DNA of 64,000 bases from Candidatus Methylophosphatis haderslevensis (GCA_016711925.1 JADJSA010000007.1:18087-82086); one strand, 5' to 3'. Shown: positions 5,213 to 61,824, counted from the first letter of the stretch. Program-made: numbers and translations. The notes: generated from the sequence alone by a model not told the origin.

Positions 5213-5231
5213 TCATTTTCGAGGAGCAAGC

Positions 5232-5438
5232 ATGGAATCGGCAACCATCAAGATCGGCGGCATGACCTGCATGGGCTGCGTGCGCAGCGTGAGCAACGTG
5301 CTGCAGGCGCTGCCCGGCGTCAGCCGCGCCGAGGTGTCGCTGGAGCGCGGCGAGGCGCATGTCGAGTTCGATTCGGCCAGCGTGTCGACCGCCGCACTCA
5401 AGGCGGCGGTCGAGAAAGCGGGCTTCGCGGCGCCCTGA
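5232..5438 (+). CDS. copZ: CopZ-like heavy-metal-associated copper chaperone
   Basis: 68-aa protein with GMTCMGCV (MxCxxC) in an HMA fold, immediately downstream of the ATPase. Confidence 0.85.
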   Translation: MESATIKIGGMTCMGCVRSVSNVLQALPGVSRAEVSLERGEAHVEFDSASVSTAALKAAVEKAGFAAP

Positions 5439-5553
5439 AGCGGGCGTTCGCGCGGCAGCGTACACCGGCCAGCGTGCCGCGGCCTTGGCCCGACGCCGGG
5501 CGGCTGCCGGGTTGGCGCTATAATCGCGATCCGCTAGCAGGGAGTAAAACTAC

Positions 5554-6102
5554 ATGGGTCTCGATCGCGTTCCATCCGGCAAGAATCTGCCGAACGATTT
5601 CAACGTCGTCATCGAAATTTCGATGCACGCCGATCCGATCAAGTACGAAGTCGACAAGGAATCCGGCGCGATTTTCGTCGACCGCTTCATGGGTACGGCC
5701 ATGCACTATCCGTGCAATTACGGCTACATCCCGCACACCATCGCCGGCGACGGCGATCCGGTCGACGTGCTGGTGGTGTCGCCGTTCGGGCTGCCGCCCG
5801 GCACCGTGGTGCGCTGCCGCCCGGTCGGCATGCTGTCGATGGAAGACGAGGCGGGCGCCGACGCCAAGCTGCTCGCCGTGCCGGTCGACCAATTGACGCC
5901 GATGTACCGCGATATCGAGAGCCCGCGCGATTTTCCGCAGATCATGCTCGACCAGATTTCGCACTTTTTCTCCCACTACAAGGATCTCGAGCGCGGCAAG
6001 TTCGTCAAATTGCGCGGCTGGCTCGGCGCCGAAGAAGCGAAGACTGAAATCATCGAAGGCGTGCAGCGCTTTGCCGACGCGAAGGAGAAGCCGGCGTTCT
6101 AA
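5554..6102 (+). CDS. ppa: inorganic pyrophosphatase
   Basis: 182 aa with YPCNYGYIPHTIAGDGDPVDVLV and other family I PPase signatures. Confidence 0.92.
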   Translation: MGLDRVPSGKNLPNDFNVVIEISMHADPIKYEVDKESGAIFVDRFMGTAMHYPCNYGYIPHTIAGDGDPVDVLVVSPFGLPPGTVVRCRPVGMLSMEDEAGADAKLLAVPVDQLTPMYRDIESPRDFPQIMLDQISHFFSHYKDLERGKFVKLRGWLGAEEAKTEIIEGVQRFADAKEKPAF

Positions 6103-6120: not shown

Positions 6121-6147
6121 AAAAGCCCGCAGAGTGCGGGCTTTTTT
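6121..6147 (+). terminator. rho-independent terminator of ppa
   Basis: GCCCGC-AGAGT-GCGGGC hairpin followed by T6, 19 nt after the ppa stop. Confidence 0.8.
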
Positions 6148-6160
6148 ATTTTGTGGCGGT

Positions 6161-6250
6161 CTGGGAGCCGCATGGAATGGCGCTTTTCGGCATGGCAAGG
6201 CTGAGCGCCTTGCTGCATGCGGGCTCCAGCCTTGCCTGCCATGAAAGTCT
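6161..6250. repeat. REP-like palindromic intergenic element, copy A
   Basis: CTGGGAGCCGCATGGAATGGCGCT...GGCATGGCAAGGCTG...CATGCGGGCTCCAGCCTTGCC with nested inverted repeats. Near-identical to 17516-17605. Confidence 0.8.
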
Positions 6251-6330: not shown

Positions 6331-7455
6331 TCAAGAGGTCAGTCGGCGGGCGTTTGCCGCCTCGGCCGGCGGCAGGCGCTTGAGCGGAATGTTGACGTAG
6401 ATGCCGGCGAACAGGTCCGCATCGAGATAGTCGGCCGGCTTCGCAAGGTTGAAGCGCGGCGCGATTTCGTCGATCGCGAGGCGCGTCTTGTCGTCGAGCG
6501 TGCCGGTCGCGGCGAGCGGAAAGCCGAATTCCTTGAGCGTGTTCTGCAGCCACTTGACCTTGGTCGGCGTATCGTTCTTGACGTAGCTGCGCTTGATCGC
6601 ATCCATGACAACCGGGTCGGCCTTGCCGTTCGGAATGCAGCGCCAGTAGGGCACGTTGGTATGACGGCCGAGCACTTCGAGCACCGACAGGTCGACCAGC
6701 AGGCGGATCGCGCTGTGGCGTCCCTGCAGGTAGCGCGTGTTGCTCACCACGCCGAAGGCATTGCCATAGATCGCAAAATCGATGCCGTTCTCGTAAGTCT
6801 GGTTGAGCACCCGGATCGTGTTGGTCGCCTGCACCCGCGGAATCATGGTCTGGGTGCTGAAATCGATCAGGTTCAGATCGAGCGACAGATCGGACAATGT
6901 GGTGGCCGATTTGCGGTCCCAACTCAGGTCGGTCTGGCCGCGCCCGCCGCCGAACACGCCGCGTGCGTTCGCGCCCTTGCCCGCGCTGCCGATGGCGCGG
7001 TCGAATTCGGTGATCGCGCCGGTTATCAAAACGTCCGGCTGGGTCAGTTGAATCTTGGAACCCTGCTGCGCGTGGGCGATCACGTAATCGGGCTGGAACG
7101 GAACATATACGACTCGCTGCCCGACCCGGTTGATCGCGCTGCGCACCATCTCGGTGACGTCGCCGGGAAGTTCGGCGCCGACCAGCGGATGCGAAAGACC
7201 GGTGGCATCGCCGATGCCGCGCGTCTGCACATAGAGCACCTTGCCCGACGGGCGATACTTCTCCAGCAGGTCGCCGAAGCTCTCCAGCGCGCCGCTGTAG
7301 CGCGTGACCAGCGCGGTCGGGCTGCTCGATTCGGCCGTCTTCCTGGCCACCAATTCGCGCGCCGCCTTTTCGGACTCGCCGAGGGTTGCACACCCGCCGC
7401 CGGCCAGGCTGGCGATGGAGAGCAGAGCCAGACAACAGAATTTCGATGTGTTCAT
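6331..7455 (-). CDS. CsgG/HfaB-like outer-membrane lipoprotein with C-terminal peptidoglycan-binding domain
   Basis: Lipobox LAGGGC. Core resembles CsgG (GDATG...DVTEMVRSAINRVG...ITGAITEFD...LDLNLID). The C-terminus VKWLQNTLKEFGFPLAATGTLDDKTRLAIDE matches the PG_binding_1 pattern. Confidence 0.6.
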   Translation of the reverse strand: MNTSKFCCLALLSIASLAGGGCATLGESEKAARELVARKTAESSSPTALVTRYSGALESFGDLLEKYRPSGKVLYVQTRGIGDATGLSHPLVGAELPGDVTEMVRSAINRVGQRVVYVPFQPDYVIAHAQQGSKIQLTQPDVLITGAITEFDRAIGSAGKGANARGVFGGGRGQTDLSWDRKSATTLSDLSLDLNLIDFSTQTMIPRVQATNTIRVLNQTYENGIDFAIYGNAFGVVSNTRYLQGRHSAIRLLVDLSVLEVLGRHTNVPYWRCIPNGKADPVVMDAIKRSYVKNDTPTKVKWLQNTLKEFGFPLAATGTLDDKTRLAIDEIAPRFNLAKPADYLDADLFAGIYVNIPLKRLPPAEAANARRLTS

Positions 7456-7482
7456 GATCTCGTCCCGCCTATGGTTGGAAAT

Positions 7483-7857
7483 CTACTTGCCGCCCACCGT
7501 CGTGATGTTTCCGTTGATCGCGCCCCGTTCGACGATCACCGTGATGTTGCCGCGATTGCCGCCTTCGATATGCGGGCTCGCGATGTTGATGTCGCCGCCG
7601 TTGTCGTCCGGATTCGCCGAGACGGACTGCTTGTTGGCGATGGCGGTACGCACGTTCGACATGGCTTCATGCGTCGCGCGATGAGCCTTGCTGCGTGCCG
7701 CAACCGCGTAGATGCCGATATTCCGAACGTCGATCGGCTCGCGGTCGAGTTGCGCGGCATAGCCCTTGATCGGCGCGTAATACTCCGGGTCGATCGCGTT
7801 GGACACGTTTGCGATCAGGCAGCCCCAAAGTGCCAGGACAATTTTTCGTAGCAGCAT
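7483..7857 (-). CDS. small exported protein (124 aa), Gly/Asn-rich C-terminal repeats
   Basis: ATG at 7857, N-terminal hydrophobic signal MLLRKIVLALWGCLIANVSNA, tail GGDINIASPHIEGGNRGNITVIVERGAINGNITTVGGK. Only the last 124 codons of the 288-aa track ORF look coding. Confidence 0.5.
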   Translation of the reverse strand: MLLRKIVLALWGCLIANVSNAIDPEYYAPIKGYAAQLDREPIDVRNIGIYAVAARSKAHRATHEAMSNVRTAIANKQSVSANPDDNGGDINIASPHIEGGNRGNITVIVERGAINGNITTVGGK

Positions 7858-7913
7858 CTTTGCCTCCGGGCCGGACTGGGGGGCGACCGGGCGTCGCCCC
7901 CCAACGCGATTGA

Positions 7914-8270
7914 TCACTTCAGTACAACGGAATTCACGTTCATCGTGCCGCCACCGAGGTTGTAGACGTCTTCCGCCTTGTTGCCGTCGATCAGTACCGT
8001 CCCGCCGATCTTGCCGCCATTGGAGACCACCAGCGAGTTCACGTTGGTTTCGCCTGCCGCATCGACCTGGACTTTCGCACCCGTGAGCGCCCCGAGAACG
8101 CCGCCCGACTTGACCCCGACGTTCGCGCCGCCGGACATGATCCGGGTCGCCTTGTTGTTGCTTACGGTGACCGATGCGCCCGACATGATCTCCGGTGCGC
8201 CGGCGGCGAGTACGGACATCGACGCGGCAGCCAGCGTGGAAATGACAATCAACTTGGATACGATCTTCAT
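7914..8270 (-). CDS. small secreted repeat protein (118 aa), beta-solenoid/curlin-like periodicity
   Basis: Signal peptide MKIVSKLIVISTLAAASMSVLAAGA. The mature part is Gly/Asn/Val-rich, with a GG...V.V pattern recurring every ~15-17 aa. Confidence 0.6.
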   Translation of the reverse strand: MKIVSKLIVISTLAAASMSVLAAGAPEIMSGASVTVSNNKATRIMSGGANVGVKSGGVLGALTGAKVQVDAAGETNVNSLVVSNGGKIGGTVLIDGNKAEDVYNLGGGTMNVNSVVLK

Positions 8271-8361
8271 GTTGTGACTCCTTCTTGCGATGGTGGATGG
8301 TTGGCCGAAATTCGACCGGGTTGCCGGTGCCGCGCATGTCGCCCGGCACGAACGGAATCAG

Positions 8362-9169
8362 TCAGGCGAGGGCGCGAAACTGCACGCGACGGTTGTAGGC
8401 GCTGTTCGGGTGGGTGCCAGGCAGCGGCTTGGCGGAACCCAGCCCCTTCGCAACCAGCGCCGCTTCCGGGATGGCGTGGCTGGCGATCAGGTAGCGTTTG
8501 ACGGCCTCGGCGCGGAGCCGCGACAGCTTGAGGTTGCCGGCGCTCGAACCTGCGGCATTGGTGTGTCCCTCCACCACCACCTTGCGTTCGAAGCCTGCCA
8601 GCTTGATGCCCTCGGCGATCGAGTCGATCGCGCGCTTGGAGGCATCATTCAACTGCCATGAATTGTTGGCGAACTTGATCGCCAGCGCCAATGCGTCCGC
8701 CTTGCCGGCCGAGGCCGGCCGGGGCGATTCCGTCTGTTGCGCGGCCTTTCGCGCATAGGCGGTCGAAGCCACCGCTTCGCCGCGCAAGCCATCCGCCCGG
8801 GACGGCAGCGCATAGGCGGTCTTCTGCATCGCGCCGCCACTGCCGCGCTGCGCGATCTGGCCGAGTTTTGCGTTCCATGCGCCGACTGCTGCACTCGCGC
8901 TGGCGGCGATCTCGTCTTCGCTGACGGTATGGCCGGCATCCTTGATTTCCTGTTCCACCGCAGCGGGTTCGTCAGGTGTATAGAACAGACCGCGCGTCTT
9001 GGGCAGGCTGGCGAAGCGTGCCGGCGTGGCGCCCAGTATCCGCGCCACCACGCGCGGGTCGGGCACGTCCCCGGCCTGGTACACCCGGATGCTTTCCGCA
9101 CAGGCTGCAGCGCTCACGACAAGGGCGATCGAGCAGGGAGAGGGTCGAGCGGATGATTCGTGCGTTCAT
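8362..9169 (-). CDS. OmpA/MotB-family peptidoglycan-associated protein; signal peptide out of frame by one base
   Basis: C-terminal OmpA_C motif VVVEGHTNAAGSSAGNLKLSRLRAEAVKRYL...NRRVQF. The track ORF starts at GTG 9117 with no signal peptide. An ATG at 9169 with an AAGGAG RBS encodes MNARIIRSTLSL. Dropping one base near 9130-9134 joins it to IALVVSAAACAES. Confidence 0.65.
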
Positions 9170-9222
9170 GATGGCTCCTTCTTCTTCCCGAGGGTCGGCA
9201 ACGTGTGTCGCTGATGTCCCTG

Positions 9223-9250
9223 TGTCGAAGGAGCGATCGCACCGGTTCAA
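9223..9250 (-). promoter_or_regulatory. ECF-type promoter candidate TTGAACC-N16-CGACA upstream of the ompA-like gene
   Basis: The minus strand reads TTGAACC-ggtgcgatcgctcctt-CGACA, in the 150-nt gap between the caspase stop (9320) and the ATG at 9169. Same -35, spacer length and -10 core as the two sites at 15769-15796 and 16156-16183. Confidence 0.55.
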
Positions 9251-9319
9251 TAATTCTTCACGGCAATTTGGCGACGGCGGTCGCGGCGCGCACGCCACCT
9301 GGGCGGTGCGCGCAGTGAA

Positions 9320-12208
9320 TCAGCGAATCGGGCTCGCGATTTGCCCGATCACGCTGTCGCGCAGTGCGACGGGCGAAATCATCTGCGGGGTCTGCGGGCC
9401 GAGCCGCCGGTCGCGCAGGCGATCGACCATCGGCACGGCATGGTCGAACAGTTCGCGCAGAGTGAGCTTGCGGTCGCGATCGGCGTCGGCTGCACCGCTC
9501 AGACCCTCGAGCAGCGCATAGGTGAACAGGCCGTGCCGGCCCGGCGCATATTCTTGCGAATCCTCGCCGCCGCGCGCCGCCACCACCAGGGCGAAGCGCG
9601 AACTGGCCGAGCGTTTGGCGAGATTGTGAGAATCGAAGGTGCCGGCGATGTTCTTTGCCTGGCAGGTGTCGACGATCAATATGCGGCGTCCGGCGACGGC
9701 GCGCAACGCGTCGAAGAAATGCGTCCATGAGAGCAGCGAATCGCCGCCCGGCGGACGGCCCCTGACCAATTGTTCGACGTCTTTCGGATCGGCATCGCGC
9801 GGCACGAAGTAGTAGTTGCCGGCAGCGTCGCTGATGCCGTGCGAGGCGAGGAAGATCACCACCGTGTCGCGTGCGCGCGCTGAGCGCGCGAACTTGAGCG
9901 CGGCGAGGATGCTGGCCTTGTCGGGCTTGCCGGCGCTGGCATCGCTGAGCAGTTTGACGCGTACGTTGGCGAAGAGGCCCTTGCCCGTGCGTTCGAGTGC
10001 GGCGGCCATCTCCTCGGCGTCCTGTGCGGAGAAGTTCAGCCTGAACTTGTCGGCCAGCCGCGGAAAGCTGCCCGCACCGATCGCGAGCAGGTAGAGATCG
10101 CCACGGCCCGCGGCGGGTTCGGCGGCGTCGGAGAATACGACCTGTTCGGCAACGCCGATCGAGACGCCGTTGAACACCTCGACCCGCACCCGATTGATGC
10201 CGCGCGCGAGTTCAAGGTCGAGCTCGCGCGAAAACTGCTCGCTTGCGCCGCCGGAGAGTTCGCGCTCGCTGGCGGCGATCACCGGGACGTTGTTGACGAA
10301 CACCGCGACATCGCGCATCGGCAGGCGCGTGCGCTGCGCGCTCAGCCGAAAACGGGAACGGGATGCACTCTTCTCGCTGCGCCGCAGCCGTTCGAGTTGC
10401 AGCCGGGGCGGGGCCACTTCCGCCAGCCGCGTGACATCGAATCCCTTCTTCCCGTCGATCTCCGGCAACGCGCGACCCTTGCTGGTGAAAAATGCCTGGA
10501 CCATATCCGGCCGGTAGAGCAGCCGGTCGAACTGCGAGGCCAGCACGAAGTCGGGCGCGCTCTCCTTGCCCTGGTTGATAAGCCAGCCGATGTAGTTGTC
10601 GCCCTGCGGCGATGATGTGTAGTAGCCAGCCGGAATCCAGGCGATCCATTCGCGGCTGTGCGCGTGCACGAACAGCGCCAGCACTTCGGCGCCGTCGTCC
10701 ATCCGGTACCAGCGCAGGGTGCCGTCGCCCAGACCGGCGACCACCCATTCGCCATTGCCGCTGATCGTCGCCGCCAGCGCCACCGACGGAAGCGCCTTGC
10801 TCCACGCGATGGCGCCGGCGGAATCGACGCGGTGCAGGTTCCATTCGGTGCCGAGCACGGCGCTGCGCAGGTTCGGCGCGATCGCATGGCAGCGCGACCG
10901 CTCGTAGGGTTCGAGCGCGATGGCCTTGCCGTTGAGCATCGGGCGATAACCGTCGCGGGCGTGTTCGATTCTCCAGCCTGCGGCCGAACGGATCGGCCCT
11001 TGCAGGCCGCGACGCTGTTCGGCCGATGGTTCGCCGTCGGCTTCGGCGAGCGAGAAATACGCCGGGCCACGTGGCGCCGGAAACGACACCAGCGACGCAT
11101 CGGGAGCGAGTTTGAGCGTGGCGTTGATGTACACCGGCAACTCCGACTCATGCACCGCCAACACCTTGCCCTCGCTGTCGATCAGGCCGATGCTCGGATC
11201 GTCGGTGGTGAACGCGATCTCGCCCGACGCCGTGGCGGCGATGTCCCCGAGGCGGGTGCGGGCAACCGGCGTGGCGACCGGCTTGCCGCGCCCGTCTGCG
11301 GGCCAACAGCGGATGTGGTTGGTACCCGCGGCGCGAGCCTCGCCCGCGGCGCAGAGTTTTTTGCCGCGCGCCGCCCAACTCAGCGAATAGAGGTTGACCA
11401 GATTGGCCGCCGCGTCGCGGGCCGAGGCCCAGATTGGCGTCAAGTCCCGGGCCGAGAGGACGGCGATGCGCGGCGTGTCGTAAAAGCCTACGGCTATCCG
11501 CTCGCCGTCCGGTGAATAGCGGATCGACGCCGGTTTGTTCCCGGCGAGCATGCGCTTGCGCAGGCGCAGCCTGGCCTGCTCGTCATAGAGCCGGACCATG
11601 CCGTCGAGCGAACTGACCGCGAGGCGCCCGGCCGCGTCGTAGTCCATCTCGATTATTTTGTCGGCATACTGCGCGTCGCGCCCGGCAATCCGGTAGTCGC
11701 TGCTGTCCAGAACGTAGAGCCCCGAATTGCCAAGCAGGCCGACCGCCAGGTGCTTTCCGTCCGGCGAATAGCCGAGCGCGCCGACCCCTTCGGGAAAGCC
11801 GCCGATCCGGCGCACCAGGCGCCCGCCGTTCATGTCGAACAGATAGACGCTGGCCTTGCCGTCCCAGTCCCAACCGGTCCACCCGGCCACAGCCAGGGTG
11901 GCGCCGTCGGGCGAGAGGGCGGCGGCGTACAACTGGCCTTCGTTTCCGTCGGCGATCGGCACGCGCAAGGTCGCCCGCAACTGCAAGTCGGGCAGGCCCC
12001 AGATGCGTATGGTTTTGTCGTGACCGACCGAAATGATCTGGGAACGCGTGGCGTCGGCCACGATCTTGTGCACGGCGCCGACGTGGGAGCCGGGTTCGAT
12101 CAGAAGAATCGGCGCTGCCGGCGGCCCGTCGATGCGCGCGACCCCCGGCAGGGGACAAGCGAGGCTGGTGGCGGCCAGCAGCGCCGCGAGCCAGCGCCGA
12201 CTACCCAC
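9320..12208 (-). CDS. secreted WD40 beta-propeller / caspase (peptidase C14) fusion protein
   Basis: N-terminal signal peptide (RRWLAALLAATSLA). WD repeats (GHDKTIRIWGL, SLDGMVRLYD, GLGDGTLRWY). C-terminal C14 domain with His in VVIFLASHG and Cys in ILIVDTCQA. Confidence 0.8.
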   Translation of the reverse strand: MGSRRWLAALLAATSLACPLPGVARIDGPPAAPILLIEPGSHVGAVHKIVADATRSQIISVGHDKTIRIWGLPDLQLRATLRVPIADGNEGQLYAAALSPDGATLAVAGWTGWDWDGKASVYLFDMNGGRLVRRIGGFPEGVGALGYSPDGKHLAVGLLGNSGLYVLDSSDYRIAGRDAQYADKIIEMDYDAAGRLAVSSLDGMVRLYDEQARLRLRKRMLAGNKPASIRYSPDGERIAVGFYDTPRIAVLSARDLTPIWASARDAAANLVNLYSLSWAARGKKLCAAGEARAAGTNHIRCWPADGRGKPVATPVARTRLGDIAATASGEIAFTTDDPSIGLIDSEGKVLAVHESELPVYINATLKLAPDASLVSFPAPRGPAYFSLAEADGEPSAEQRRGLQGPIRSAAGWRIEHARDGYRPMLNGKAIALEPYERSRCHAIAPNLRSAVLGTEWNLHRVDSAGAIAWSKALPSVALAATISGNGEWVVAGLGDGTLRWYRMDDGAEVLALFVHAHSREWIAWIPAGYYTSSPQGDNYIGWLINQGKESAPDFVLASQFDRLLYRPDMVQAFFTSKGRALPEIDGKKGFDVTRLAEVAPPRLQLERLRRSEKSASRSRFRLSAQRTRLPMRDVAVFVNNVPVIAASERELSGGASEQFSRELDLELARGINRVRVEVFNGVSIGVAEQVVFSDAAEPAAGRGDLYLLAIGAGSFPRLADKFRLNFSAQDAEEMAAALERTGKGLFANVRVKLLSDASAGKPDKASILAALKFARSARARDTVVIFLASHGISDAAGNYYFVPRDADPKDVEQLVRGRPPGGDSLLSWTHFFDALRAVAGRRILIVDTCQAKNIAGTFDSHNLAKRSASSRFALVVAARGGEDSQEYAPGRHGLFTYALLEGLSGAADADRDRKLTLRELFDHAVPMVDRLRDRRLGPQTPQMISPVALRDSVIGQIASPIR

Positions 12209-12229
12209 GTGGCCGGCCCCGCAGCCTGG

Positions 12230-13978
12230 TCAGGAGCAGGCCGTGGCGCGAGACTGCTCTGCGCGGCGCACTGCCACATGCCGCGCCGGCGCGCGCGCTT
12301 TGCACGCCACCGGCGGCGTCGTTGCCGCGTTGCTCGCGCGGGCGAACACATCTGGGGCGGCGCCATAGGCTGGGGAACTGCGACCCAGATCGGCCGTCTG
12401 CGCGATGCCGCGACCGCTGAGTTCGCCCGGCCGGTGCGGCGCACTGGCCTGCACCGGGTTCTCGGCGACTCGCAGGCCGCGGGTTACCGTGTCGCCCTGC
12501 AGCCGCGCGAGCGCAAACGACGCGCGGGTGACGCGGCCGAAGATCAGCGGTTGGACCGGATTGCCCGGGGCTGCCGCCAAGGTGCGGGTTGTGGCAGCGC
12601 GCGCCTGACGCGGACGGCGGTTGCGCGGCGGGTTGGCGGCGTACTCGTCGTCGCCGGCTTGCGCGACCGCTCGCGAGGCGGCGGCTTTGGCGGCCTGGGT
12701 TTGGCCGGAGGCGCGCCGGGCAGGGAAGTCGGCGGCGGTGTCTTTCGGCGCGGTGGCGGCCGTGGGCCGCGTGGCGTCGAACTCGCCGATGCTGCGATCG
12801 ACGATATCCATGCCCTGGCGCAGCGACTGCGCCGCAGGCGCACCGGCACGGCTCGGATCGGCGCTCGAATCGGGCAACATGACGGTGATGCTGCCGGGGT
12901 CCGGGTTACGCTGTTGCGACGCGGGGCTTTGCGGCACGCTTCCGGCCACCGGGTCGCCCTGCTGCGACGTCGGGCCGTGGGGAACCTGGCCGCGCGGCGT
13001 TTCTCTCCCTCCGACGGCCTTGCCGGTTGATGGATCGATCGCACTGGCACTCGGCGCATAGGCGAGTTTGACCGGTTCGCTCGCGGCCGTGTTGCGTACG
13101 CTGCCTGAACCGGCGCTTTCCCATGCAGCCGGAGCGGGAGCGGAATTGCTGGCAGCGCTGCCCGGTGCGGCTCTGCCCGAGCGCTCGGCCTGTTGCGGGC
13201 GCGACGGTGCCGGCTGGGGCGCGCTGGTCGGTGCGGCCTGCGTTGCGCTGGCATTGGGCGGCGGGAACGCTGCCGGCGACACTGCGGTCTTGAGCAGCGT
13301 TCCGTCCGGGTTGCGGTAGTAGTTGATGGTGATCTCGTGGCCGTCCGATCCCTTGACGTACTCGGTCTTGACCGGGTTGCCGAGCCCGCCACCCGTGCTG
13401 GTCCTGGATGCGCCGGCGGCGGTTTGCGCCGCTGCCGCAGCCGCGGTGGCCGCGGGGCGATCCGCGCCGCCTTGCCCCGTGGCGGAGGCTGGCGCCGGTG
13501 GTGGCGGCGCAGCCGCCGCGCGAGGTGCCGACGAAACCGCTTCTACCGGTTTGGCAGGCTGATCGGGTGCCTTGGTGATGGCGACGGACGGGGTACGGGG
13601 AATCTGCCCGTTCAGGCCGCCGCCGCCGAGCATGGATTTGGCACCGGAGACCGGCGCCGGCTGCGCCGCTGCGGTCTTTGCGGCAGGGGCGACCTTTGCG
13701 GCAACGGCCGCCGCCGCGGACGCCGCGCCCTTTGCAACAGCCGGGACCAGCGGGGGCGGGGCTTTGACGGGCTTGGCGGCGGCGGACGTGGTCGACTGCC
13801 TGGATGCGCTTTGGCTGGTGTTCGGCGGAATGATGCCTCCGCTCGAGAATCTCGCATCGGCCTTGCCGGATGCCAGGACAGAGAAAACGATGCCCAGACA
13901 CAGGGCAGAGATGCGCCGCGTTGGCCCGGTGCACGTCCGGCGGGAATTGTGCCGCGCTGCAGTCGAGATTCGTGTCAT
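12230..13978 (-). CDS. secreted Ala/Pro/Ser/Thr-rich low-complexity protein (582 aa), function unknown
   Basis: GGGGAGA RBS plus ATG at 13978, signal-like segment ISALCLGIVFSVLASGKADA. It is the only frame without an extreme Arg bias. It sits tightly packed between the TpsB-like and caspase genes. Confidence 0.5.
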   Translation of the reverse strand: MTRISTAARHNSRRTCTGPTRRISALCLGIVFSVLASGKADARFSSGGIIPPNTSQSASRQSTTSAAAKPVKAPPPLVPAVAKGAASAAAAVAAKVAPAAKTAAAQPAPVSGAKSMLGGGGLNGQIPRTPSVAITKAPDQPAKPVEAVSSAPRAAAAPPPPAPASATGQGGADRPAATAAAAAAQTAAGASRTSTGGGLGNPVKTEYVKGSDGHEITINYYRNPDGTLLKTAVSPAAFPPPNASATQAAPTSAPQPAPSRPQQAERSGRAAPGSAASNSAPAPAAWESAGSGSVRNTAASEPVKLAYAPSASAIDPSTGKAVGGRETPRGQVPHGPTSQQGDPVAGSVPQSPASQQRNPDPGSITVMLPDSSADPSRAGAPAAQSLRQGMDIVDRSIGEFDATRPTAATAPKDTAADFPARRASGQTQAAKAAASRAVAQAGDDEYAANPPRNRRPRQARAATTRTLAAAPGNPVQPLIFGRVTRASFALARLQGDTVTRGLRVAENPVQASAPHRPGELSGRGIAQTADLGRSSPAYGAAPDVFARASNAATTPPVACKARAPARHVAVRRAEQSRATACS

Positions 13979-14010
13979 CGTGTTCTCCCCTATCGACCGC
14001 CTGCGCGGTC

Positions 14011-15726
14011 TCAGAAGCGGTAGCTGAGTCCAGCGAACAGCCGCGGACGGCGGTTGCCAGGCTCGGACACATCGCGCGTCAGCGGCTGCGCGACTTCCAC
14101 AAACGCGCCGGCGCTGCTGCCCAAATTCATGCGCACTCCCAGGCCCGCGGAGGACGCGGAGTGTGAAGAAACTTCACCGAGATCTTGCCGCGGCGAGCGA
14201 ATCCAGGCCTTGCCGATGTCGTAGAAACCGTAAACCGTGTACGGGCCGGGCAGCGCTTCGGGTTTGCCGCCGCTCAGGCGCAGCTCGAGCTTGAGCGCCA
14301 GGCCGGAATCGCCCACCAGTTCGGCCGCATTGTAGCCCCGCCCGAACTGTTCGCCGCCGAACGCGAACTGCTCCGGCACCAGCAGGCTGTTGGCGGCGAT
14401 CTGGCCATTGATTGCCGCCAGCAGCGACCAGCGCTCGGCGATCGATTGCAGCCGAGCGGCATAAATCGTGGTCTTGAAAAAGTCGTTGCGGCCGTTCTCG
14501 CGCGAACGGTCCGGATCGTCGTTCGACGATGCGCCCAGGCCGCGCAGACCCTTGGACAATTCGACCTCGAGCAGATTCACGCCGCCTAGGGTATCCACCG
14601 AGTCGAGCGTCATTGCCAGCCGCAGCGCGCGAATTCGGTCGCGGGTAACCGGCGAACCGGGCACGTCGGTCTTGCCGTTGTGCGCGGTGTAGGCGCCGCG
14701 CAGATAAACGTTGGCGTCCTGCGTGCGGTAGAGCGGGTAGCTCGCCGAAATTGCCATGCCGCGCGACTGCGTTTCGAGGTTGCTGTTGAAGCCGGGATCG
14801 CTGGCGCGTGAATCGCTGCCATTGACCGAAAGGCCCACCCGCGCGCCGCTCGATCCGATCGGTTCGTCATGGGAAAGGACGAGGTAGTTAAGTTCGCGGT
14901 TGCCGGTGGTCACGGCACGAAACGCAGTCTCGTCGAAGTTCCCGGTAAGCCCGGTTGCGAACACGTCGAAATAGCCGCGCCAGGCACCGGCGGATCGACT
15001 GCCCCGGTTGTCCGCAGCGACCGCGCCGCCGAAGCGGTTGCGCGCGACCTCGATGACCAGCGCATGCGCGCCGGGTTGCCCGGAGATCGGTTCCAACGCG
15101 GAAGAAACGCCGAGGCCGCCGAGATCGTTCATCAGGAACAGATTGCGCTCGAGCACGTTTGCCGTTGCCGGGCGCTCCTGGCGAATCGGCTGGACGAACG
15201 GCTCGAAGGCCGCGAGCGGGATGTCGCCGCCGCCTTGAATCCGCACCTCGGCCACGTAACCCTCGCTGGCGGCAAGACGCACCACGCCGTTGGTCACGCT
15301 TTGCTCGGGCACCGCGACTTCCGACAACAGGTAGCCGTCGCGTCGATAGCGCTGAGTGAGCGTCTCGGCCAGCGCCATCAACTCGGCCTGCGTCACCTTG
15401 CGGCCGAGGTAGGGCGCGAACACCGGTTGCAGATCGTCCTGACGATACACGGTGCTGCCTTCGAGTTGGAAACCCGATACGTCGACGCCTTCGCCCAGCG
15501 GGGGCGGACGGGTTGCGCGTTGGGGCAGGGCCGGCGGGCGCGGTCTCGCGCCACTGCGCGATTGCGGCGGCTTGCGGAATTGCCGTTCGACCTGGCCGCC
15601 GGAATCGATGTCGCCGGCGCCGATTGCGACCGGCACAGAGGTTGCGCAAAGGATGAGAACGGCGAGCGGCCGCCGGGCAATCAGGCAGACGCGGTTACGG
15701 CGTCGATCACTCAAGTTGGGCTGCAT
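14011..15726 (-). CDS. ShlB/FhaC/HecB-family (TpsB) outer-membrane transporter with POTRA domain
   Basis: 571 aa. Signal peptide, POTRA-like FQLEGSTVY...LGRKVTQAELMALAETLTQRYRRDGYLLSEV, and a beta-barrel ending ...RLFAGLSYRF with a terminal aromatic residue. Confidence 0.8.
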   Translation of the reverse strand: MQPNLSDRRRNRVCLIARRPLAVLILCATSVPVAIGAGDIDSGGQVERQFRKPPQSRSGARPRPPALPQRATRPPPLGEGVDVSGFQLEGSTVYRQDDLQPVFAPYLGRKVTQAELMALAETLTQRYRRDGYLLSEVAVPEQSVTNGVVRLAASEGYVAEVRIQGGGDIPLAAFEPFVQPIRQERPATANVLERNLFLMNDLGGLGVSSALEPISGQPGAHALVIEVARNRFGGAVAADNRGSRSAGAWRGYFDVFATGLTGNFDETAFRAVTTGNRELNYLVLSHDEPIGSSGARVGLSVNGSDSRASDPGFNSNLETQSRGMAISASYPLYRTQDANVYLRGAYTAHNGKTDVPGSPVTRDRIRALRLAMTLDSVDTLGGVNLLEVELSKGLRGLGASSNDDPDRSRENGRNDFFKTTIYAARLQSIAERWSLLAAINGQIAANSLLVPEQFAFGGEQFGRGYNAAELVGDSGLALKLELRLSGGKPEALPGPYTVYGFYDIGKAWIRSPRQDLGEVSSHSASSAGLGVRMNLGSSAGAFVEVAQPLTRDVSEPGNRRPRLFAGLSYRF

Positions 15727-15768
15727 TGACGAATTATCGGGCGGTTGGTTTGGGGTTGCTCACGGCTA

Positions 15769-15796
15769 AGTCGAAACCGGCGCCCGCGGGGTTCAA
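15769..15796 (-). promoter_or_regulatory. ECF-type promoter candidate TTGAACC-N16-CGACT upstream of the TpsB-like operon
   Basis: The minus strand reads TTGAACC-ccgcgggcgccggttt-CGACT. The -10 lies about 43 nt upstream of the ATG at 15726. Confidence 0.6.
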
Positions 15797-16155
15797 GAAA
15801 TTTAAGGCGGGCGGGCGAACAATCGGGCTGCGTCCAGCGTCCAAAGTGCCATCGAGCCGGTCGGGCGCGCCGGCAAACGCCGGCCGGCATGATGCTGAAA
15901 TCCGTCTTGCGGCACGCCAGCCGCCGGATCGGGACCAGCCTGCGGGTCGGGACCGGGAGCGCTCCACGCCGATCCGCCACGCAGACGATGGTATCCGACT
16001 CCATTGGCATCGTCCAGATCAAATGCTGTCGCCGCGTGGCGACAGGGAGTGCGTAGCCGATCGTCTCGCACGGGGCTTGCAGCGCGGCCGGTCCGCTGCG
16101 CCCAAGCGCCCATGCAATAATCCGTACCGCTTCTGCCGATGGCGACAAACACAAT

Positions 16156-16183
16156 TTGAACCTGCGCGCGCCTTGCTGCGACT
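16156..16183 (+). promoter_or_regulatory. ECF-type (autoregulatory) promoter candidate TTGAACC-N16-CGACT upstream of the sigma gene
   Basis: The plus strand reads TTGAACC-tgcgcgcgccttgctg-CGACT. The -10 ends 5 nt before the ATG at 16189, which implies a leaderless or near-leaderless mRNA. Confidence 0.55.
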
Positions 16184-16188
16184 CAACA

Positions 16189-16767
16189 ATGACGTCACGA
16201 AACGCCGAGCCGGAAGACCCTCGCATACGGACCCTGCTCGACGCTGTTGAACGCGGCGACGAGGCAGCCATGCAGGATTTGTACCGCTCGTTCAACCGGC
16301 GCGTGTTCGCGTTCGCGATGAACCGTCTGAACGACCATGCGGAGGCCGAAGAAGTGACCATCGATACGCTGCTCGAAGTGTGGAAGCACCCGCAACGATT
16401 CCGTGGCGAATCGCGCTTCAGCACGTGGCTGCTCGGCATCGCGCATCACAAGGCGATCGATCGCCTGCGTTCGCGTCGCAACGATCATGTGCCGGCAGAC
16501 GAGCATCTCGATCTGATCGCCGACCCGGCATTGCGCCCCGACCAGGTGGTCGAAGCGGCCGATCGGCAGCGCATGCTCGCCGAGTGCATGGACAAGCTGC
16601 CCGACGAACAGCGCGAGTGCCTGCACCTGGTGTTGCTCGACGGGCTGTCGCTGGCGGAAGTGTCGCAGGTCCAGGCATGCCCGGAAAACACGGTGAAGAC
16701 GCGGCTCTTCCACGCGCGGCAGAAGATGAAGAACTGCCTCGGGCGGCTCGAAGCCTGGAGTGCCTGA
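16189..16767 (+). CDS. ECF (group 4) RNA polymerase sigma factor
   Basis: Sigma-70 region 2 (DLYRSFNRRVFAFAMNRLNDHAEAEEVTIDTLLEVW) and region 4 (LPDEQRECLHLVLLDGLSLAEVSQVQACPENTVKTRLFHARQKM). The start is taken at ATG 16189. Confidence 0.88.
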   Translation: MTSRNAEPEDPRIRTLLDAVERGDEAAMQDLYRSFNRRVFAFAMNRLNDHAEAEEVTIDTLLEVWKHPQRFRGESRFSTWLLGIAHHKAIDRLRSRRNDHVPADEHLDLIADPALRPDQVVEAADRQRMLAECMDKLPDEQRECLHLVLLDGLSLAEVSQVQACPENTVKTRLFHARQKMKNCLGRLEAWSA

Positions 16768-16768
16768 C

Positions 16769-17452
16769 ATGAGCGAACCGACGACCGAAGCGAACGGCGC
16801 ACGGACTGCCATGATGTTCGCGTATCTGAATGGCGAATTGCCGGCTGACGAACGCGCGCGCTTTGAAGCGACGCTCGACGCCGAGCCGAAGCTTGCCGCC
16901 GAACTGGCCGACTGGCGGCAGCTTCGCGGCGAACTCGAAGTGCGCAGGCAGCAGCGCGCGCCGGAGGCCGGACTGGACGCGTTTTCACGCCAATTGCGGG
17001 GTTTGCGGCAGTCGCGCAAGGCCGGCCTTGCCGCATGGATCGAGGGCGCGATGCGCCCGCTCTATTCACCCCTGCGCTATGCCGCAGCGTTGCTGCTGGT
17101 GGTGGTACAGGCCGGTTTCATCGCCGCCATGTTGCGCGACATGCCGGCGGCCGGGCCGGACGACGCCGGCACGCCGACCGCCCGGGTGCGTTCGATCGAG
17201 AATGCGTCGACGGCCTCGCTGCGCGTGCGCTTCCGGCTCGACGCAACCGCGCGCGAGATCGCCGCCGCCCTGGCGAGCGCCGGTGCGCGCATCGTGGATG
17301 GCCCGGGGCAGGGCGGGTTTTATGCTTTGCGGGTCGCCGAGGGCACGCCTGCCGCCGCGGCCGCCGCGCTGCGTAAGAGTGCGGCCGTCGACGAGATTGT
17401 CGAAGGCCCGAACCCCGAGGCGCCGCCCGCCGATCCGCCGCGCAAGCGCTAG
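16769..17452 (+). CDS. anti-sigma factor, single-pass membrane protein
   Basis: The start overlaps the sigma stop (TGACATG). N-terminal anti-sigma-like helix pattern MMFAYLNGELPADERARFEATLDAEPKLAAELADW without Zn ligands. One TM segment (YAAALLLVVVQAGFIAAML) and a periplasmic C-terminal domain. Confidence 0.7.
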   Translation: MSEPTTEANGARTAMMFAYLNGELPADERARFEATLDAEPKLAAELADWRQLRGELEVRRQQRAPEAGLDAFSRQLRGLRQSRKAGLAAWIEGAMRPLYSPLRYAAALLLVVVQAGFIAAMLRDMPAAGPDDAGTPTARVRSIENASTASLRVRFRLDATAREIAAALASAGARIVDGPGQGGFYALRVAEGTPAAAAAALRKSAAVDEIVEGPNPEAPPADPPRKR

Positions 17453-17515: not shown

Positions 17516-17605
17516 CTGGGAGCCGCATGGAATGGCGCTCTCCGGCATGGCAAGGCTGCGGGCCTTGCCGCATGCGGCTTCCAGCCTGGCATGGCCTGGA
17601 ACGGC
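17516..17605. repeat. REP-like palindromic intergenic element, copy B
   Basis: CTGGGAGCCGCATGGAATGGCGCTCTCCGGCATGGCAAGGCTGCGGGCCTTGCCGCATGCGGCTTCCAGCC..., nearly identical to copy A. Confidence 0.8.
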
Positions 17606-17631: not shown

Positions 17632-18897
17632 TCAAGCGCGCGGGCGAAACGGCGCGTGCGCTTCCAGTTCGCTCACATAGTCGGCGATGGCGAGCGATTC
17701 GTGGTCGAGGTGGCGTTCGATCGCATCGGCAAAGCGCGGGTCGCGAATCCAGTGCGCCGAGGCGGTGCGCACCGGCAGCAGCCCGCGGGCCAGCTTGTGC
17801 TCTCCCTGGGCACCGCCTTCGAAGCGGCCGATGCCGTGGTCGATGCACCATTCGATGCCCTGGTAATAGCAGGCCTCGAAGTGCAGCAGCGGCACGTGTT
17901 CCAGTTCGCCCCAGTAGCGGCCGTAGAGCGCCTGCGCGTCGCAGATGTCGAGCGCGGCGGCAATCGGCCGTCCGGCGCGCTCGGCGACGAACAGCAGCAG
18001 GTTCTCGGGCATGCTGCGCGCGAGTTCGAGGAAGAACGCCAGGTTCAGGTATGGCTGCTGGCCGCGCTGGTGATAGGTGTTGCGGTAGCAGCGCAGGAAG
18101 CAATGCCAGTCGGCCTCGCCGATCTGCGGGCCGCGCAAATGGCGGAAGGTGACGCCGGCGTCGCGCACGCGGCGGCGCTCCTGGCGGATCTTCTTGCGCT
18201 TGTCGCGCGCCAGCGAATCGAGAAAACCGTCGAAATCCGGCCAGCCGGCGTTGTGCCAGTGAAACTGCACCGCGTGGCGAATCTGCAGGCCCGCGGCTTC
18301 GAGCAGCGCGGTGTCATTGGCGTCGGCGAACAGGATGTGCAGCGACGACACGTCGGCGTGCCGGGCGAAGCCGGTCAGCGCGCCGACCAGTGTACGGCGG
18401 GCCGGCGGGTCGGGCGCCAGCAGACGCGCGCCCGGTATCGGCGAGAACGGCACGCTGCAGACAAGCTTCGGGTAGTAGCGCTGGCCATGGCGCGCGTAGG
18501 CTTCGGCCCAGGCCCAGTCGAACACGAATTCGCCGCGCGAATGCGATTTCTCATACAGCGGCAGCGCGCCGATCAGCCGATCGTCCTGCCACAGCGTCAG
18601 GTGGCGCGGCCGCCAGCCGGTGCGTGCGCTGGCGCATCCGCTGCTCTCGAGCGCGCGCAAGAAGGCGTGCCGGACGAACGGCTGTCCGCCCGCCAGGGCA
18701 TCCCAGTCGGGGCCGGCTACGTCATCGATCGAATCGAGAATCCGCACGGTGGCGGTGGCTGGCTTGTTCAAGAGCGGTCTCGCAGAGGCATGCGCGATAG
18801 GGATCGGGCGCGAACGGGCGGTTGGCAGGGTGGGGCGAAATCGAACCGGCGCGAACCAGCGCCGGACCGGGACAATGGTACGGCATCCGCTCCGCAC
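17632..18897 (-). CDS. GNAT/FemAB-like acyltransferase fold protein (COG3146/DUF482 family)
   Basis: WDALAGGQPFVRHAFLRALESSGCASARTGW...ALPLYEKSHSRGEFVFDWAWAEAY...YYQGIEWCI... is typical of this family. The true start is probably the GTG at 18747 (VRILDSIDDV), since the upstream 50 codons are Arg/Pro-rich. Confidence 0.65.
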   Translation of the reverse strand: MRSGCRTIVPVRRWFAPVRFRPTLPTARSRPIPIAHASARPLLNKPATATVRILDSIDDVAGPDWDALAGGQPFVRHAFLRALESSGCASARTGWRPRHLTLWQDDRLIGALPLYEKSHSRGEFVFDWAWAEAYARHGQRYYPKLVCSVPFSPIPGARLLAPDPPARRTLVGALTGFARHADVSSLHILFADANDTALLEAAGLQIRHAVQFHWHNAGWPDFDGFLDSLARDKRKKIRQERRRVRDAGVTFRHLRGPQIGEADWHCFLRCYRNTYHQRGQQPYLNLAFFLELARSMPENLLLFVAERAGRPIAAALDICDAQALYGRYWGELEHVPLLHFEACYYQGIEWCIDHGIGRFEGGAQGEHKLARGLLPVRTASAHWIRDPRFADAIERHLDHESLAIADYVSELEAHAPFRPRA

Positions 18898-22868: not shown

Positions 22869-23537
22869 ATGTCGAATCATCCGGTATCGCTGGCCGCGCT
22901 GAGATCCTTCCAGATGTTCCAGAATTTGCCGGACGATCGGCTTGAGTCGGTTGCCCGATGCGCGATGCTGCGAAATGTCGCGCGTGGCGCCACGGTGGTT
23001 CATGCGGGCGATCGCACGGATTTCGTGTACTTCGTTCTTTCGGGCAACCTCAAGGTTCTGGTGAGCGACGAGGAAGGCCGCGAGGTGATTCTGACCATGC
23101 TCGGCCCGGGCGAGGTGTTCGGCGAAATGGGCGTGCTTGACGAGAATCCGCGTTCGGCGACGGTACTGGCGGTGTCGTCGGCCAACCTGGTGGTGATGTC
23201 CAAGGGCGACTTCAAGCGCGTGCTGCAGGAAAACTTCGAAGTCTCGGTGCAGTTCATGAAGAACCTGATCCAGCGTCTGCGGGTGGCCGACCGCAAGATC
23301 GAGAGCCTCGCGTTGATGGACGTCTATGGCCGGGTGGCGCGCCTGTTGCTGGATATGGCGGAGAACGTTGGCGGCCAGCAGGTGGTGACCAAGAAAATCT
23401 CCAAGCAGGATATTGCCAAGATGATCGGCGCCTCGCGCGAGATGGTGAGCCGGGTGATGAAGGATCTGCAGGTGCAGGGGCTGATCGAGGAGACCGATGG
23501 TAAGGTCATCCTGCGCGAGCGGATCAACTCGATCTGA
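22869..23537 (+). CDS. Crp/Fnr-family transcriptional regulator (cNMP-binding domain plus HTH, no Fe-S Cys cluster)
   Basis: cNMP-binding motif FGEMGVLDENPRSATVLA and C-terminal HTH ISKQDIAKMIGASREMVSRVMKDL. AGGAG RBS lies upstream of ATG 22869. Confidence 0.85.
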   Translation: MSNHPVSLAALRSFQMFQNLPDDRLESVARCAMLRNVARGATVVHAGDRTDFVYFVLSGNLKVLVSDEEGREVILTMLGPGEVFGEMGVLDENPRSATVLAVSSANLVVMSKGDFKRVLQENFEVSVQFMKNLIQRLRVADRKIESLALMDVYGRVARLLLDMAENVGGQQVVTKKISKQDIAKMIGASREMVSRVMKDLQVQGLIEETDGKVILRERINSI

Positions 23538-30261: not shown

Positions 30262-30351
30262 GGAGAGGTGCCAGAGCGGTTGAATGGGCCGGTCTCGAAA
30301 ACCGGAATAGGGGCAACTCTATCGTGGGTTCGAATCCCACCCTCTCCGCCA
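30262..30351 (+). tRNA. tRNA-Ser (anticodon CGA)
   Basis: 90 nt. Acceptor stem GGAGAGG/CCTCTCC, anticodon loop CTCGAAA, long variable arm, T-arm GGGTTCGAATCCC, encoded CCA. Confidence 0.92.
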
Positions 30352-58777: not shown

Positions 58778-59097
58778 CTGAATCCCCTGTTGGTTCGCAA
58801 ATCGATCACAAGGCGACGCAGCGTGGAACTCGCGCGCAGGCGCGATGCGGGCAGTGACGGACCCGTTCCGACGGCCCCGCTGCCGTGCGTCCGGGACGAA
58901 CCTGCGCGCTTGCACCGCGGTTCGCCCGGCCGTGTAGGCCGGAAGCTTTGCGTCTCCGGGCTTTCGCCCGGGTTGCCCTTTGTGTGCAGTACGATTTCAG
59001 CCAGCGCCGGCATCGACTACACGTTGGGATGACCTACGGCGGATGCGCGGCGGACTTGAGGGGTGGGGCCGTGATATTGATCACGCCCGGTTGCCGA

Positions 59098-61178: not shown

Positions 61179-61824
61179 GCGATCCGCCCGCCTGGCCGCC
61201 GCCGTGGTCCTGGCGCTGCTGGTGCCGCTGCTGATCGCCGGCAAGGCTAAAGCCGGCGGCGAGTTGTTCGATGGCTGCGTCGACGCGCGCGCCCGGCCGG
61301 TTCAGAGCACGATCGACTACGGCCTGCCGCAACTCGCGCACGCGGCGATGGAAAATGGCAGAGCCGTCGTGCGTTACAACCCGGCCCTGATGCCCGACCT
61401 GCCCACGCGCGCCCGGCTGTTCTTCTTCGCCCACGAGTGTGCCCGCGTGGCGCTTGGGCAGCCGCTGGGTGCCGAGTGCTCGCTGCAACAAGCGCGGCAG
61501 GCCGATTGCTGGGCGCTGGCGACGCTGCAACGGTCCGGCGAAGCGGACGCAAGCCTCGCGGCCGACCTGGCGGCTCCCGAAATCGACTGGGCTGCCTTGC
61601 CCGGTCCGGCGCGAACCGTCGATCTCGCGGCCTGCGCCAAACCCGCTGGTGCGCTGCGGCTGCCCGACAGTGCGCCGCCGTCGGTCACCCAGTCGCGCCA
61701 GAATCGTTGCGTGCACGCCTGCGGCGATCGGCTGTGGCAATGCCAGAACCGCTGCCGTGACGAAGCCTGTCGCGGCCAATGTCTGGGCCACTACGGTTCC
61801 TGCGAGTCGGCATGCGGCGGCTGA
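61171..61824 (+). CDS. secreted Cys-rich hypothetical protein
   Basis: The ATG overlaps the M14 stop (ATGATTGA). Signal peptide AAAVVLALLVPLLIAGKAKA, FFFAHECARVALG segment, C-terminal CVHACGDRLWQCQNRCRDEACRGQCLGHYGSCESACGG. Confidence 0.55.
   Translation: MIERSARLAAAVVLALLVPLLIAGKAKAGGELFDGCVDARARPVQSTIDYGLPQLAHAAMENGRAVVRYNPALMPDLPTRARLFFFAHECARVALGQPLGAECSLQQARQADCWALATLQRSGEADASLAADLAAPEIDWAALPGPARTVDLAACAKPAGALRLPDSAPPSVTQSRQNRCVHACGDRLWQCQNRCRDEACRGQCLGHYGSCESACGG

Follow-up and report, generated by a model that had tools for sequence, protein, structure and literature searches.

In two-partner secretion (TPS) of the Bordetella FhaC/FhaB type, the exported protein FhaB is processed by serine proteases of the DegP/CtpA/SphB1 kind. 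PorU of the type IX secretion system (T9SS) and GPI8 of the glycosylphosphatidylinositol (GPI) transamidase are clan CD enzymes that act on C-terminal signals. For the control of a sigma factor of the extracytoplasmic function (ECF) class by a periplasmic protease, the precedent is DegS with its PDZ domain, the C-termini of outer membrane proteins and RseA. Bacterial caspase homologues are abundant and, to our knowledge, almost none of them has a known substrate or role. The caspase-like Csx29 controls an ECF sigma partner (PMC10028731), while caspase-like releasing peptidases process polymorphic toxins in cis (PMC3482391). In Caulobacter, one small curlin-like and one large adhesin-like protein depend on the CsgG-like lipoprotein HfaB to reach the cell surface (PMC6707917). 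Here, a nine-gene block from Candidatus Methylophosphatis haderslevensis is described in which an ECF sigma/anti-sigma pair faces genes for a TpsB-type transporter, an Ala/Pro-rich secreted protein, a WD40-caspase with a signal peptide, an OmpA-like protein, two small secreted proteins (s118 and s124) and a CsgG-like lipoprotein. The analysed stretch of 64,000 nt (GCA_016711925.1 JADJSA010000007.1:18087-82086) is referred to as the window.

The envelope gene system is real and recurrent, and judged from promoters and gene order its sigma factor appears to control the caspase, the transporter and the export cassette. The parts are of known kinds (ECF signalling, a type Vb (T5b) transporter, a CsgG-type channel and a C14 protease); their assembly recurs and, as far as could be found, is apparently undescribed. 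Two features are new: WD40-caspases are associated with a particular C-terminal motif of TpsA, and the CsgG cassette is not of the curli type. In the literature searched, the coverage of which was incomplete, no account was found of TPS with a trans-encoded caspase or of ECF with caspase and CsgG, in line with the original prediction for this DNA that no characterized system has such a composition. The same prediction proposed a signal-triggered envelope module. Its component folds, their co-occurrence and the ECF promoter are supported. In place of the single operon there are at least two transcription units, the two-partner secretion part is without a TPS-domain cargo, and a likeness of the small repeat proteins to curlin was not detected.

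Organization of the locus

The block is set between the convergent pyrophosphatase gene ppa (5554-6102) and a FemAB-like gene (17632-18897). All nine open reading frames (ORFs) were recovered at the coordinates first predicted. The minus strand carries seven genes, separated by gaps of 32, 21, 150, 91, 56 and 27 nt (predicted: 21-150 nt); facing them on the plus strand, as anticipated, are the genes of the ECF sigma and the anti-sigma factor, which overlap by 8 nt. The G+C content at third codon positions (GC3) is 0.78-0.84 across every gene of the block. Signal peptides and the lipobox were assigned by eye. A single 9.4-kb operon had been expected for the seven genes. Instead, the promoters described below point to at least two ECF-type transcription units, one running from TpsB to the caspase and the other from OmpA to the CsgG-like gene. 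A bidirectional terminator-like hairpin (6121-6145, unstranded) is common to the 3' side of the CsgG-like gene and the convergent ppa.

The sigma/anti-sigma pair and its promoter

The ECF sigma factor (192 aa, 16189-16767, plus strand) matches PF04542 (Sigma70_r2, 62 bits) and PF08281 (r4_2, 50.9 bits), and its predicted identity is borne out by TIGR02937 (109.9 bits vs a cut-off of 42.9). The ATG at 16189 is most likely its start. The TTG at 16156 given by the ORF lister is the poorer candidate because it falls inside the -35 element of the promoter, whereas the ATG lies 6 nt past the -10 element. The predicted membrane anti-sigma factor (230 aa, 16760-17452, plus strand) comprises a putative N-terminal anti-sigma domain, one hydrophobic transmembrane (TM) helix and a conserved periplasmic domain. 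Its matches to family models stay below threshold (zf-HC2: 21.0 bits vs 22.2; NF052375: 38.6 vs 100), and the alignment of its own family is conserved. Just outside the membrane it carries Arg144-Ser145 (17189-17194). This juxtamembrane Arg ([VT]-R-[SGT]), located 15-20 residues past the TM helix, is invariant in all 15 anti-sigma factors that adjoin caspase systems, while these proteins are mutually just 27-64% identical. A weak match of the periplasmic domain to the Fervidolysin-prodomain was found in one of seven family members and was dropped.

ECF promoters typically combine a GAAC-like -35 with a CGxC-like -10 element. In the window, the motif TGAACC-N16-CGAC is found in three intergenic positions, each oriented toward a gene of the block: the sigma gene (16157-16182, plus), the TpsB gene (15770-15795, minus) and the OmpA-like gene (9224-9249, minus), with which the second unit would start. 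Only five exact matches occur in all 64 kb. The remaining two (22977-23002 within a Crp-family gene, and 61279-61304 without a clear gene) are probably due to chance. The same three positions are occupied in the related loci L003, L007, L088 and L092, and also in L004 with one mismatch. Further copies of the motif stand in front of the ECF genes of L063 and L065 and the TpsA gene of L065, and in front of both the ECF and the OmpA genes in the differently arranged loci L090 and L097 (context C, see below). Thus, the promoter-like motif that had been noticed in front of the sigma gene and of two operon segments is located there and is kept in orthologous loci. This phylogenetic footprint indicates an ECF-type promoter, with predicted autoregulation and at least two predicted target transcription units. 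The distance from CGAC to the ATG of the sigma gene is 6 nt in five loci (window, L003, L004, L007 and L092), and its mRNA is therefore probably leaderless. The generic pattern GAAC-N14-19-CGTC showed no enrichment, the specific motif being TGAACC-N16-CGAC, and a scan for sigma-70 promoters found none.

Around 360 nt (15796-16156) separate the two divergent promoters. This region, to which no function is assigned, contains a perfect 8-bp GC-rich hairpin (16026-16045) and, next to it in minus-strand direction, a stretch rich in T. In L007, from Candidatus Methylophosphatis roskildensis, a gene for a 422-aa transposase of the insertion sequence type (4272-5540) is located between the ECF and TpsB promoters.

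Recurrence of the gene set

The genes are found together in related and in distant genomes, as would be expected from the original prediction, and they occur in three gene orders. The full set is present in context A, which comprises the window, L003, L004/5, L007, L076, L088 and L092. In context C (L090, L091, L093, L094, L096-L098 and L138) the order is ECF, anti-sigma, a periplasmic caspase of 257-260 aa, an autotransporter-type barrel, OmpA, s118, s124, CsgG-like and a Sel1-caspase lipoprotein. The genes of the anti-sigma factor and the small caspase overlap by 4 nt here (L090, 5183-12713; L091, 4751-13883), and the passenger of the barrel is a segment of about 80 aa, rich in Ala and Pro and with a Cys pair. 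Rearranged sets are also found in Variovorax, Hydrogenophaga and Polaromonas, and in L043, L060 and L071. Variovorax sp. PCZ-1 (L035), for example, has genes for TpsB with a 456-aa partner and the WD40-caspase, for the ECF and anti-sigma factors and a second small caspase, and for OmpA and repeat proteins, a CsgG-like protein to which PG_binding_1 and DUF4384 are fused, and DUF2807; L031 and L040 are similar.

Context B (about 35 loci in Comamonadaceae and others) contains the cassette with no caspase or ECF gene: an s118-like protein, a protein of 1,000-1,200 aa built of s118 repeats, an s124-like and a CsgG-like protein. Examples are L087 (5333-13224) and L089 (5849-12501), from a Diaphorobacter aerolatus isolate and a metagenome. 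Their operon encodes an s118-like protein, a protein of 1,065-1,198 aa made up of the same Asn/Gly repeats, an s124-like protein and a CsgG-like lipoprotein, along with other small proteins; no Pfam domain is present in any of them. The large repeat protein would be the obvious cargo, and the operon resembles an adhesin or fibre system of a CsgG-dependent but non-curli type.

Within the clade of CsgG-like proteins at least 55% identical to that of the window, every member with available flanks adjoins periplasmic caspases, and these have three different architectures. At least six genomes, with caspase identities as low as 50%, keep the form without a TPS domain in the TpsA slot, together with intact ORFs, conserved islands and conserved promoters. 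On the evidence of gene content, the set is a conserved functional unit, since its components (ECF/anti-sigma, one or more caspases, a barrel of the type V secretion system (T5SS) kind, OmpA and the cassette) remain constant while their order and the protease architecture vary.

The WD40-caspase and the TpsA-slot protein

The WD40-caspase (962 aa, 9320-12208, minus strand) has a signal peptide, a WD40 propeller and a Peptidase_C14 domain (PF00656, 41.2 bits vs a cut-off of 21.4, residues 708-945). Its catalytic residues His790 (in ASHG; 9839-9841) and Cys849 (in VDTCQA; 9662-9664) are invariant across 20 homologues of 40-74% identity, which confirms the predicted caspase fold with an intact His/Cys dyad fused to a beta-propeller. 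An Asp occupies the position -2 to the catalytic Cys, as in the Arg/Lys-specific metacaspases, and the VD-T-C and SHG motifs resemble those of metacaspases and orthocaspases. For the latter, an Arg/Lys specificity is described in PMC6426788. The enzyme of the window is by these motifs probably Arg-specific. It matches the EACC1-associated caspase model NF047832 weakly (58.4 bits vs 140). Searched against PDB sequences, the caspase domain alone gave no match and the full-length profile gave WD40 proteins only.

At least 400 full-length homologues make up this family, which extends over Betaproteobacteria, Gammaproteobacteria, Acidobacteriota, Desulfobacterota and Planctomycetes. Isolates among the carriers include Thauera sp. 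2A1, Variovorax paradoxus and Methylobacter; the closest relative is found in Candidatus Methylophosphatis roskildensis (Sterolibacteriaceae; 78% caspase identity). A total of 86 WD40-caspase loci were fetched, 82 of them distinct, and the proportions of loci given below refer to the 55 of these 82 for which 7 kb or more of upstream sequence was available. In 47 of these 55, the WD40-caspase gene is preceded on the same strand by genes for a TpsB and a TpsA (about 800-3,100 aa) with a TPS domain.

The TpsB-type Omp85 transporter of the window (571 aa, 14011-15726, minus strand) had been predicted as well. Both its POTRA_2 domain (PF08479, 71.7 bits vs 24) and its ShlB barrel (PF03865, 81.9 bits vs 22.7) are above the Pfam thresholds. 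The L6 motif reads FGRGY at residue 463 and the barrel motif FYDIG at residue 501, as read from the sequence; these motifs are defined as (V/I)RG(Y/F) and (F/G)xDxG (TPS review, PMC5422565). The assignment to two-partner secretion as such has to be qualified, as this TpsB has no TPS-domain partner in the 64-kb window. The slot filled by a TPS domain in those 47 loci is taken by the 582-aa Ala/Pro-rich secreted protein (12230-13978, minus strand), which has no match in Pfam or NCBIfam, including the TPS domain PF05860.

What this protein does share with the family is a C-terminal motif. The TpsA proteins of the related loci carry [FY]-[SA]-G-G-R-G-x-[AG]-Q-x-x-D-[LF]-G-R, or GGRGxAQxxDLGR in short. 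A hidden Markov model (HMM) of this motif matches 43 stop-to-stop segments, every one of them in the TpsA slot and at a distance of 0-64 residues to the C-terminus. Outside this slot it has no match when every locus and the window are translated in six frames. The 582-aa protein retains the motif as SGRGIAQTADLGRSS (12374-12418, minus strand), 47 residues before its C-terminus. Across six of its orthologues, which are otherwise 41-51% identical, the motif is the best-kept island. Intermediate forms were found too: TpsA proteins of about 830-900 aa with a TPS domain and a Cys-pair C-terminal extension (L019, L043 and L065), and a 739-aa slot protein with a fragment of a TPS domain (L071), which is by its domain content an intermediate in TPS loss. 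Because the motif is retained and intermediates exist, the Ala/Pro-rich protein is read as a TPS-less derivative of the family TpsA, and neither as an unrelated gene nor as a spurious ORF. In L021 (378-9876, from a Rhodocyclaceae genome), two tandem TpsA genes, both ending in GGRG...DLGR, stand before one WD40-caspase gene.

The putative export cassette and the OmpA-like protein

The last gene of the minus strand encodes a 374-aa lipoprotein (6331-7455) with a helical PG_binding_1-like domain at its C-terminus and a lipobox Cys22 that is invariant in its family. The predicted relation to CsgG is marginal in Pfam (PF03783, 22.6 bits vs a cut-off of 20.8, spanning just 84 residues) and is backed by a fold search. 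When the AlphaFold model (32 homologues; predicted local distance difference test (pLDDT) 71) was submitted to Foldseek, the 25 best PDB matches were all CsgG (E 1.5e-10, probability 1.0, template modelling score 0.47-0.56 on the target; 6l7a/4uv3). The family sequence profile did not find CsgG among PDB sequences. The family has at least 223 members, some of which are labelled 'CsgG/HfaB family' by NCBI. In about 45 loci, the CsgG-like gene is always directly preceded by an s124-type gene, with s118-type repeat genes farther upstream.

In the window, s118 (118 aa, 7914-8270, minus strand) is a secreted protein of two repeats, NNKA...GG..NVNSVV, and a candidate fibre subunit. The secreted s124 (124 aa, 7483-7857, minus strand) is a candidate channel accessory or nucleator and belongs to a rare family (15 clusters in 1.84 billion representatives). 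Neither of the two proteins has a match in Pfam. No curlin homology was detected, for both by Pfam and for s118 also by hhalign. The CsgG fold and the homologous cassettes suggest that the cassette may export a surface polymer.

The second unit opens with the OmpA-like peptidoglycan-binding protein (8362-9169, minus strand), the prediction of which is substantiated by PF00691 (64.8 bits vs a cut-off of 27.2). As assembled, the gene starts at the ATG at 9169, but the GGG run at 9136-9138 has one base too many, which throws the signal peptide out of frame. This is evident from the orthologues in L092 (about 90% nt identity), L007, L003 and L004. With the extra base removed, a 268-aa OmpA-like protein with a signal peptide is obtained, beginning with MNARIIRSTLSCSIALVVSAAACA. 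The frameshift is either a real mutation or an assembly error; the latter may apply, since the single extra base sits in a homopolymer.

Flanking sequences

A direct repeat of 83 nt (6161-6243 and 17516-17598; 87% identity) brackets the 11.3-kb block. It contains internal inverted repeats (fold z = -2.4) and occurs in two copies only in the 64-kb window. No match to Rfam was found in the locus or the flanking repeats. The neighbouring genes ppa, FemAB-like and NadE are not in the flanks of the block in L003, L004, L007 and L076. In L092, the ppa side is the same as in the window. Possible readings are an insertion of the block, or repeats that are elements of the repetitive extragenic palindromic (REP) kind. 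A c-di-GMP-I riboswitch (58867-58987, minus strand, 42.5 bits) and a tRNA gene (30262-30348, plus strand) are also present in the window, both unconnected with the locus.

Proposed mechanism and alternatives

The explanation that fits best, and that is put forward tentatively at a little under an even chance, is that the block forms one regulon of the dedicated ECF sigma factor, combining export of a fibre or anchor with processing of the C-terminal motif by the caspase. The promoter TGAACC-N16-CGAC would drive three units: sigma/anti-sigma; TpsB, the TpsA relic and the WD40-caspase; and OmpA, s118, s124 and the CsgG-like protein. The membrane anti-sigma factor would hold the sigma factor until a periplasmic signal inactivates it, whereupon the freed sigma would induce an export cassette resembling that of curli or of a holdfast anchor. 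In this cassette, the roles of which are modelled on CsgG with CsgA/B and on HfaB with HfaA/D, the CsgG-fold lipoprotein would serve as outer-membrane channel and export the s118 repeat protein as fibre or anchor subunit, with s124 acting as channel accessory or nucleator. The OmpA-like protein and the PG-binding-like tail of the channel would tie the machine to the peptidoglycan. The same signal would induce the periplasmic and probably Arg-specific protease. Its WD40 propeller would recognize, and its protease domain would process, the GGRG...DLGR motif, in a step likened to the periplasmic processing of the FhaB prodomain. In most relatives the motif ends a full TpsA, presumably exported by TpsB; here it is found on the TPS-less Ala/Pro-rich protein. 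While gene content, folds, conserved promoters, co-occurrence and the motif are observed, the localization of the proteins, the substrates and the direction of every proteolytic step are inferred.

Several points weigh against this explanation. The motif HMM was seeded from the very loci on which it was run. About a dozen WD40-caspase loci (Acidobacteriota and some Variovorax) have a TpsA without the motif, and it is also absent from the Variovorax-type partner protein, so it cannot be the sole substrate determinant. A conserved and apparently intact TpsB coexists with a cargo-slot protein that lacks a TPS domain. For s118, comparison with E. coli CsgA gave an hhalign probability of just 0.4% (with a CsgA sequence entered by hand), and its AlphaFold model (pLDDT 71, all short strands) has no match in the PDB; a beta-solenoid is plausible from this model. 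Finally, the OmpA-like gene is frameshifted as assembled.

These points can be set against readings in which the caspase acts elsewhere or the parts do not act together. By analogy to DegS, the WD40-caspase (or a small caspase in other loci) might be the site-1 protease of the anti-sigma factor: the propeller would sense the motif of the TpsA relic or of a stalled TpsA, and a cut at the juxtamembrane Arg would free the sigma factor and induce the fibre cassette. The overlap of the anti-sigma gene with the start of the small periplasmic caspase gene in context C points in this direction, as do the ECF/anti-sigma genes that directly follow the WD40-caspase gene in nine loci (among them L019, L031, L035, L040, L063 and L065), the juxtamembrane Arg invariant in 15 of 15 anti-sigma factors, and the strong conservation of the C-terminal motif alone in the TPS-less protein. 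However, some 45 of the 55 WD40-caspase loci have no ECF/anti-sigma genes within 10 kb, so that such a role would not be ancestral, and the invariant Arg may be structural. This DegS-like role is regarded as unlikely, although it is possibly complementary to the regulon with fibre export and motif processing. In its fuller form, which is likewise improbable, a WD40 (or Sel1) sensor would read a TpsA-derived tag, the caspase would cut the anti-sigma at the Arg, and the sigma factor would start a non-curli, CsgG-dependent (type VIII-like) fibre or anchor. It is quite improbable, by comparison, that a decaying TPS/caspase module and an independent CsgG-type cassette merely lie next to each other under a shared regulator, with no mechanistic coupling of the protease to the cassette. 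Each module does have its own promoter, most loci have TpsB-TpsA-caspase without the cassette, and about 35 have the cassette without the caspase. But the cassette clade nearest to that of the window is found with three caspase architectures and two T5SS-type barrels, and the content is kept despite the differing order, which argues for selection on the combination.

Decay may also be invoked for the locus as a whole. The 582-aa protein has no TPS domain, a +1 frameshift is present at 9136-9138, and the Ala/Pro-rich protein evolves fast (41-51% identity vs 74-89% for its neighbours). That the locus is a non-functional remnant in this genome is nonetheless very unlikely: six or more genomes retain the TPS-less architecture with intact ORFs and conserved islands and promoters, all genes of the block except the OmpA-like one are intact (eight genes, GC3 0.78-0.84), and the extra base lies in a homopolymer and may be an assembly error. 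Least probable, and only barely to be considered, is a caspase-using system of the polymorphic toxin or contact-dependent inhibition (CDI) kind, of programmed cell death or of anti-phage defence. Caspase-like peptidases do process polymorphic toxins, some of them delivered by T5SS (PMC3482391), and the weak NCBIfam match is of the EACC1 type (58 bits vs 140). Yet Pfam gives the TpsA-slot proteins TPS domains only, with no toxin or immunity domain; PADLOC relates the locus to defence by nothing beyond a generic MotB/ZorB match on the OmpA domain; the caspase, encoded separately and with its own signal peptide, is no internal releasing domain; and all its partners are envelope proteins.

Regardless of the mechanism, a caspase family of at least 400 members gains testable partners: TpsB, the motif-bearing TpsA and, for part of the family, a CsgG-type cassette together with an ECF/anti-sigma pair whose promoter is defined. 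Candidate substrates are the C-terminal motif (peptide GGRGIAQTADLGRSS) and the invariant Arg of the anti-sigma factor. A regulon is predicted, and there are cultured carriers, Variovorax sp. PCZ-1 for the combined system and V. paradoxus NBRC 15149 and Thauera sp. 2A1 for TpsB-TpsA-caspase. The non-curli cassette of many Comamonadaceae, being CsgG-dependent, would broaden the concept of type VIII secretion. If the caspase-gated reading is true, an extracytoplasmic caspase homologue of bacteria would for the first time be assigned a physiological role, and no periplasmic ECF pathway gated by a caspase would have preceded it.

Comparison with known systems

With two-partner secretion the locus shares a TpsB with POTRA_2, the ShlB barrel and an intact L6 RGY motif. 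However, the protein in the cargo slot of the window has lost the TPS domain entirely and, with no TPS cargo, the system is not a canonical TPS system. The relatives come closer to FhaB: most of them have a large TPS-domain TpsA with a conserved extreme C-terminus, a candidate for periplasmic retention or proteolysis as for the FhaB prodomain (PMC4542190; TPS review PMC5422565). In this family the dedicated protease is a trans-encoded WD40-caspase of clan CD, in place of the serine proteases that act on FhaB.

The cassette resembles curli in that a CsgG-fold outer-membrane lipoprotein is encoded right after small secreted proteins, one of which has Asn/Gly-rich strand repeats. It is not curli, since none of the locus proteins matches a curlin repeat, CsgE or CsgF in Pfam or NCBIfam. 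In addition, the channel of the window has an extra PG-binding-like C-terminal domain and is linked to an ECF sigma factor, OmpA and caspases. In context B, the combination of a small s118-type protein, a repeat protein of 1,000-1,200 aa and a CsgG-like channel recalls the pattern of HfaA/HfaB/HfaD. This is not the Hfa system either, as the HfaB model NF037935 reaches only 24 bits vs a cut-off of 300; HfaA and HfaD models gave no match, and there are no holdfast polysaccharide genes nearby.

The likeness to DegS-RseA-sigmaE is one of architecture: an ECF sigma factor with a predicted single-pass anti-sigma factor, a periplasmic protease that carries a peptide-binding domain, and a conserved C-terminal motif as possible ligand. 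Here the protease combines a caspase fold with a WD40 propeller, where DegS has a trypsin fold and a PDZ domain, and its possible link to the anti-sigma factor is suggested by gene order and the invariant Arg. With PorU of the T9SS, the GPI transamidase and the cis-acting toxin-releasing caspases, the system has in common a caspase-fold Cys protease tied to a secreted protein with a conserved C-terminal signal. The protease of the window differs in that it belongs to C14 instead of C25 or C13, is encoded in trans, carries a WD40 propeller and is partnered with a T5b transporter.

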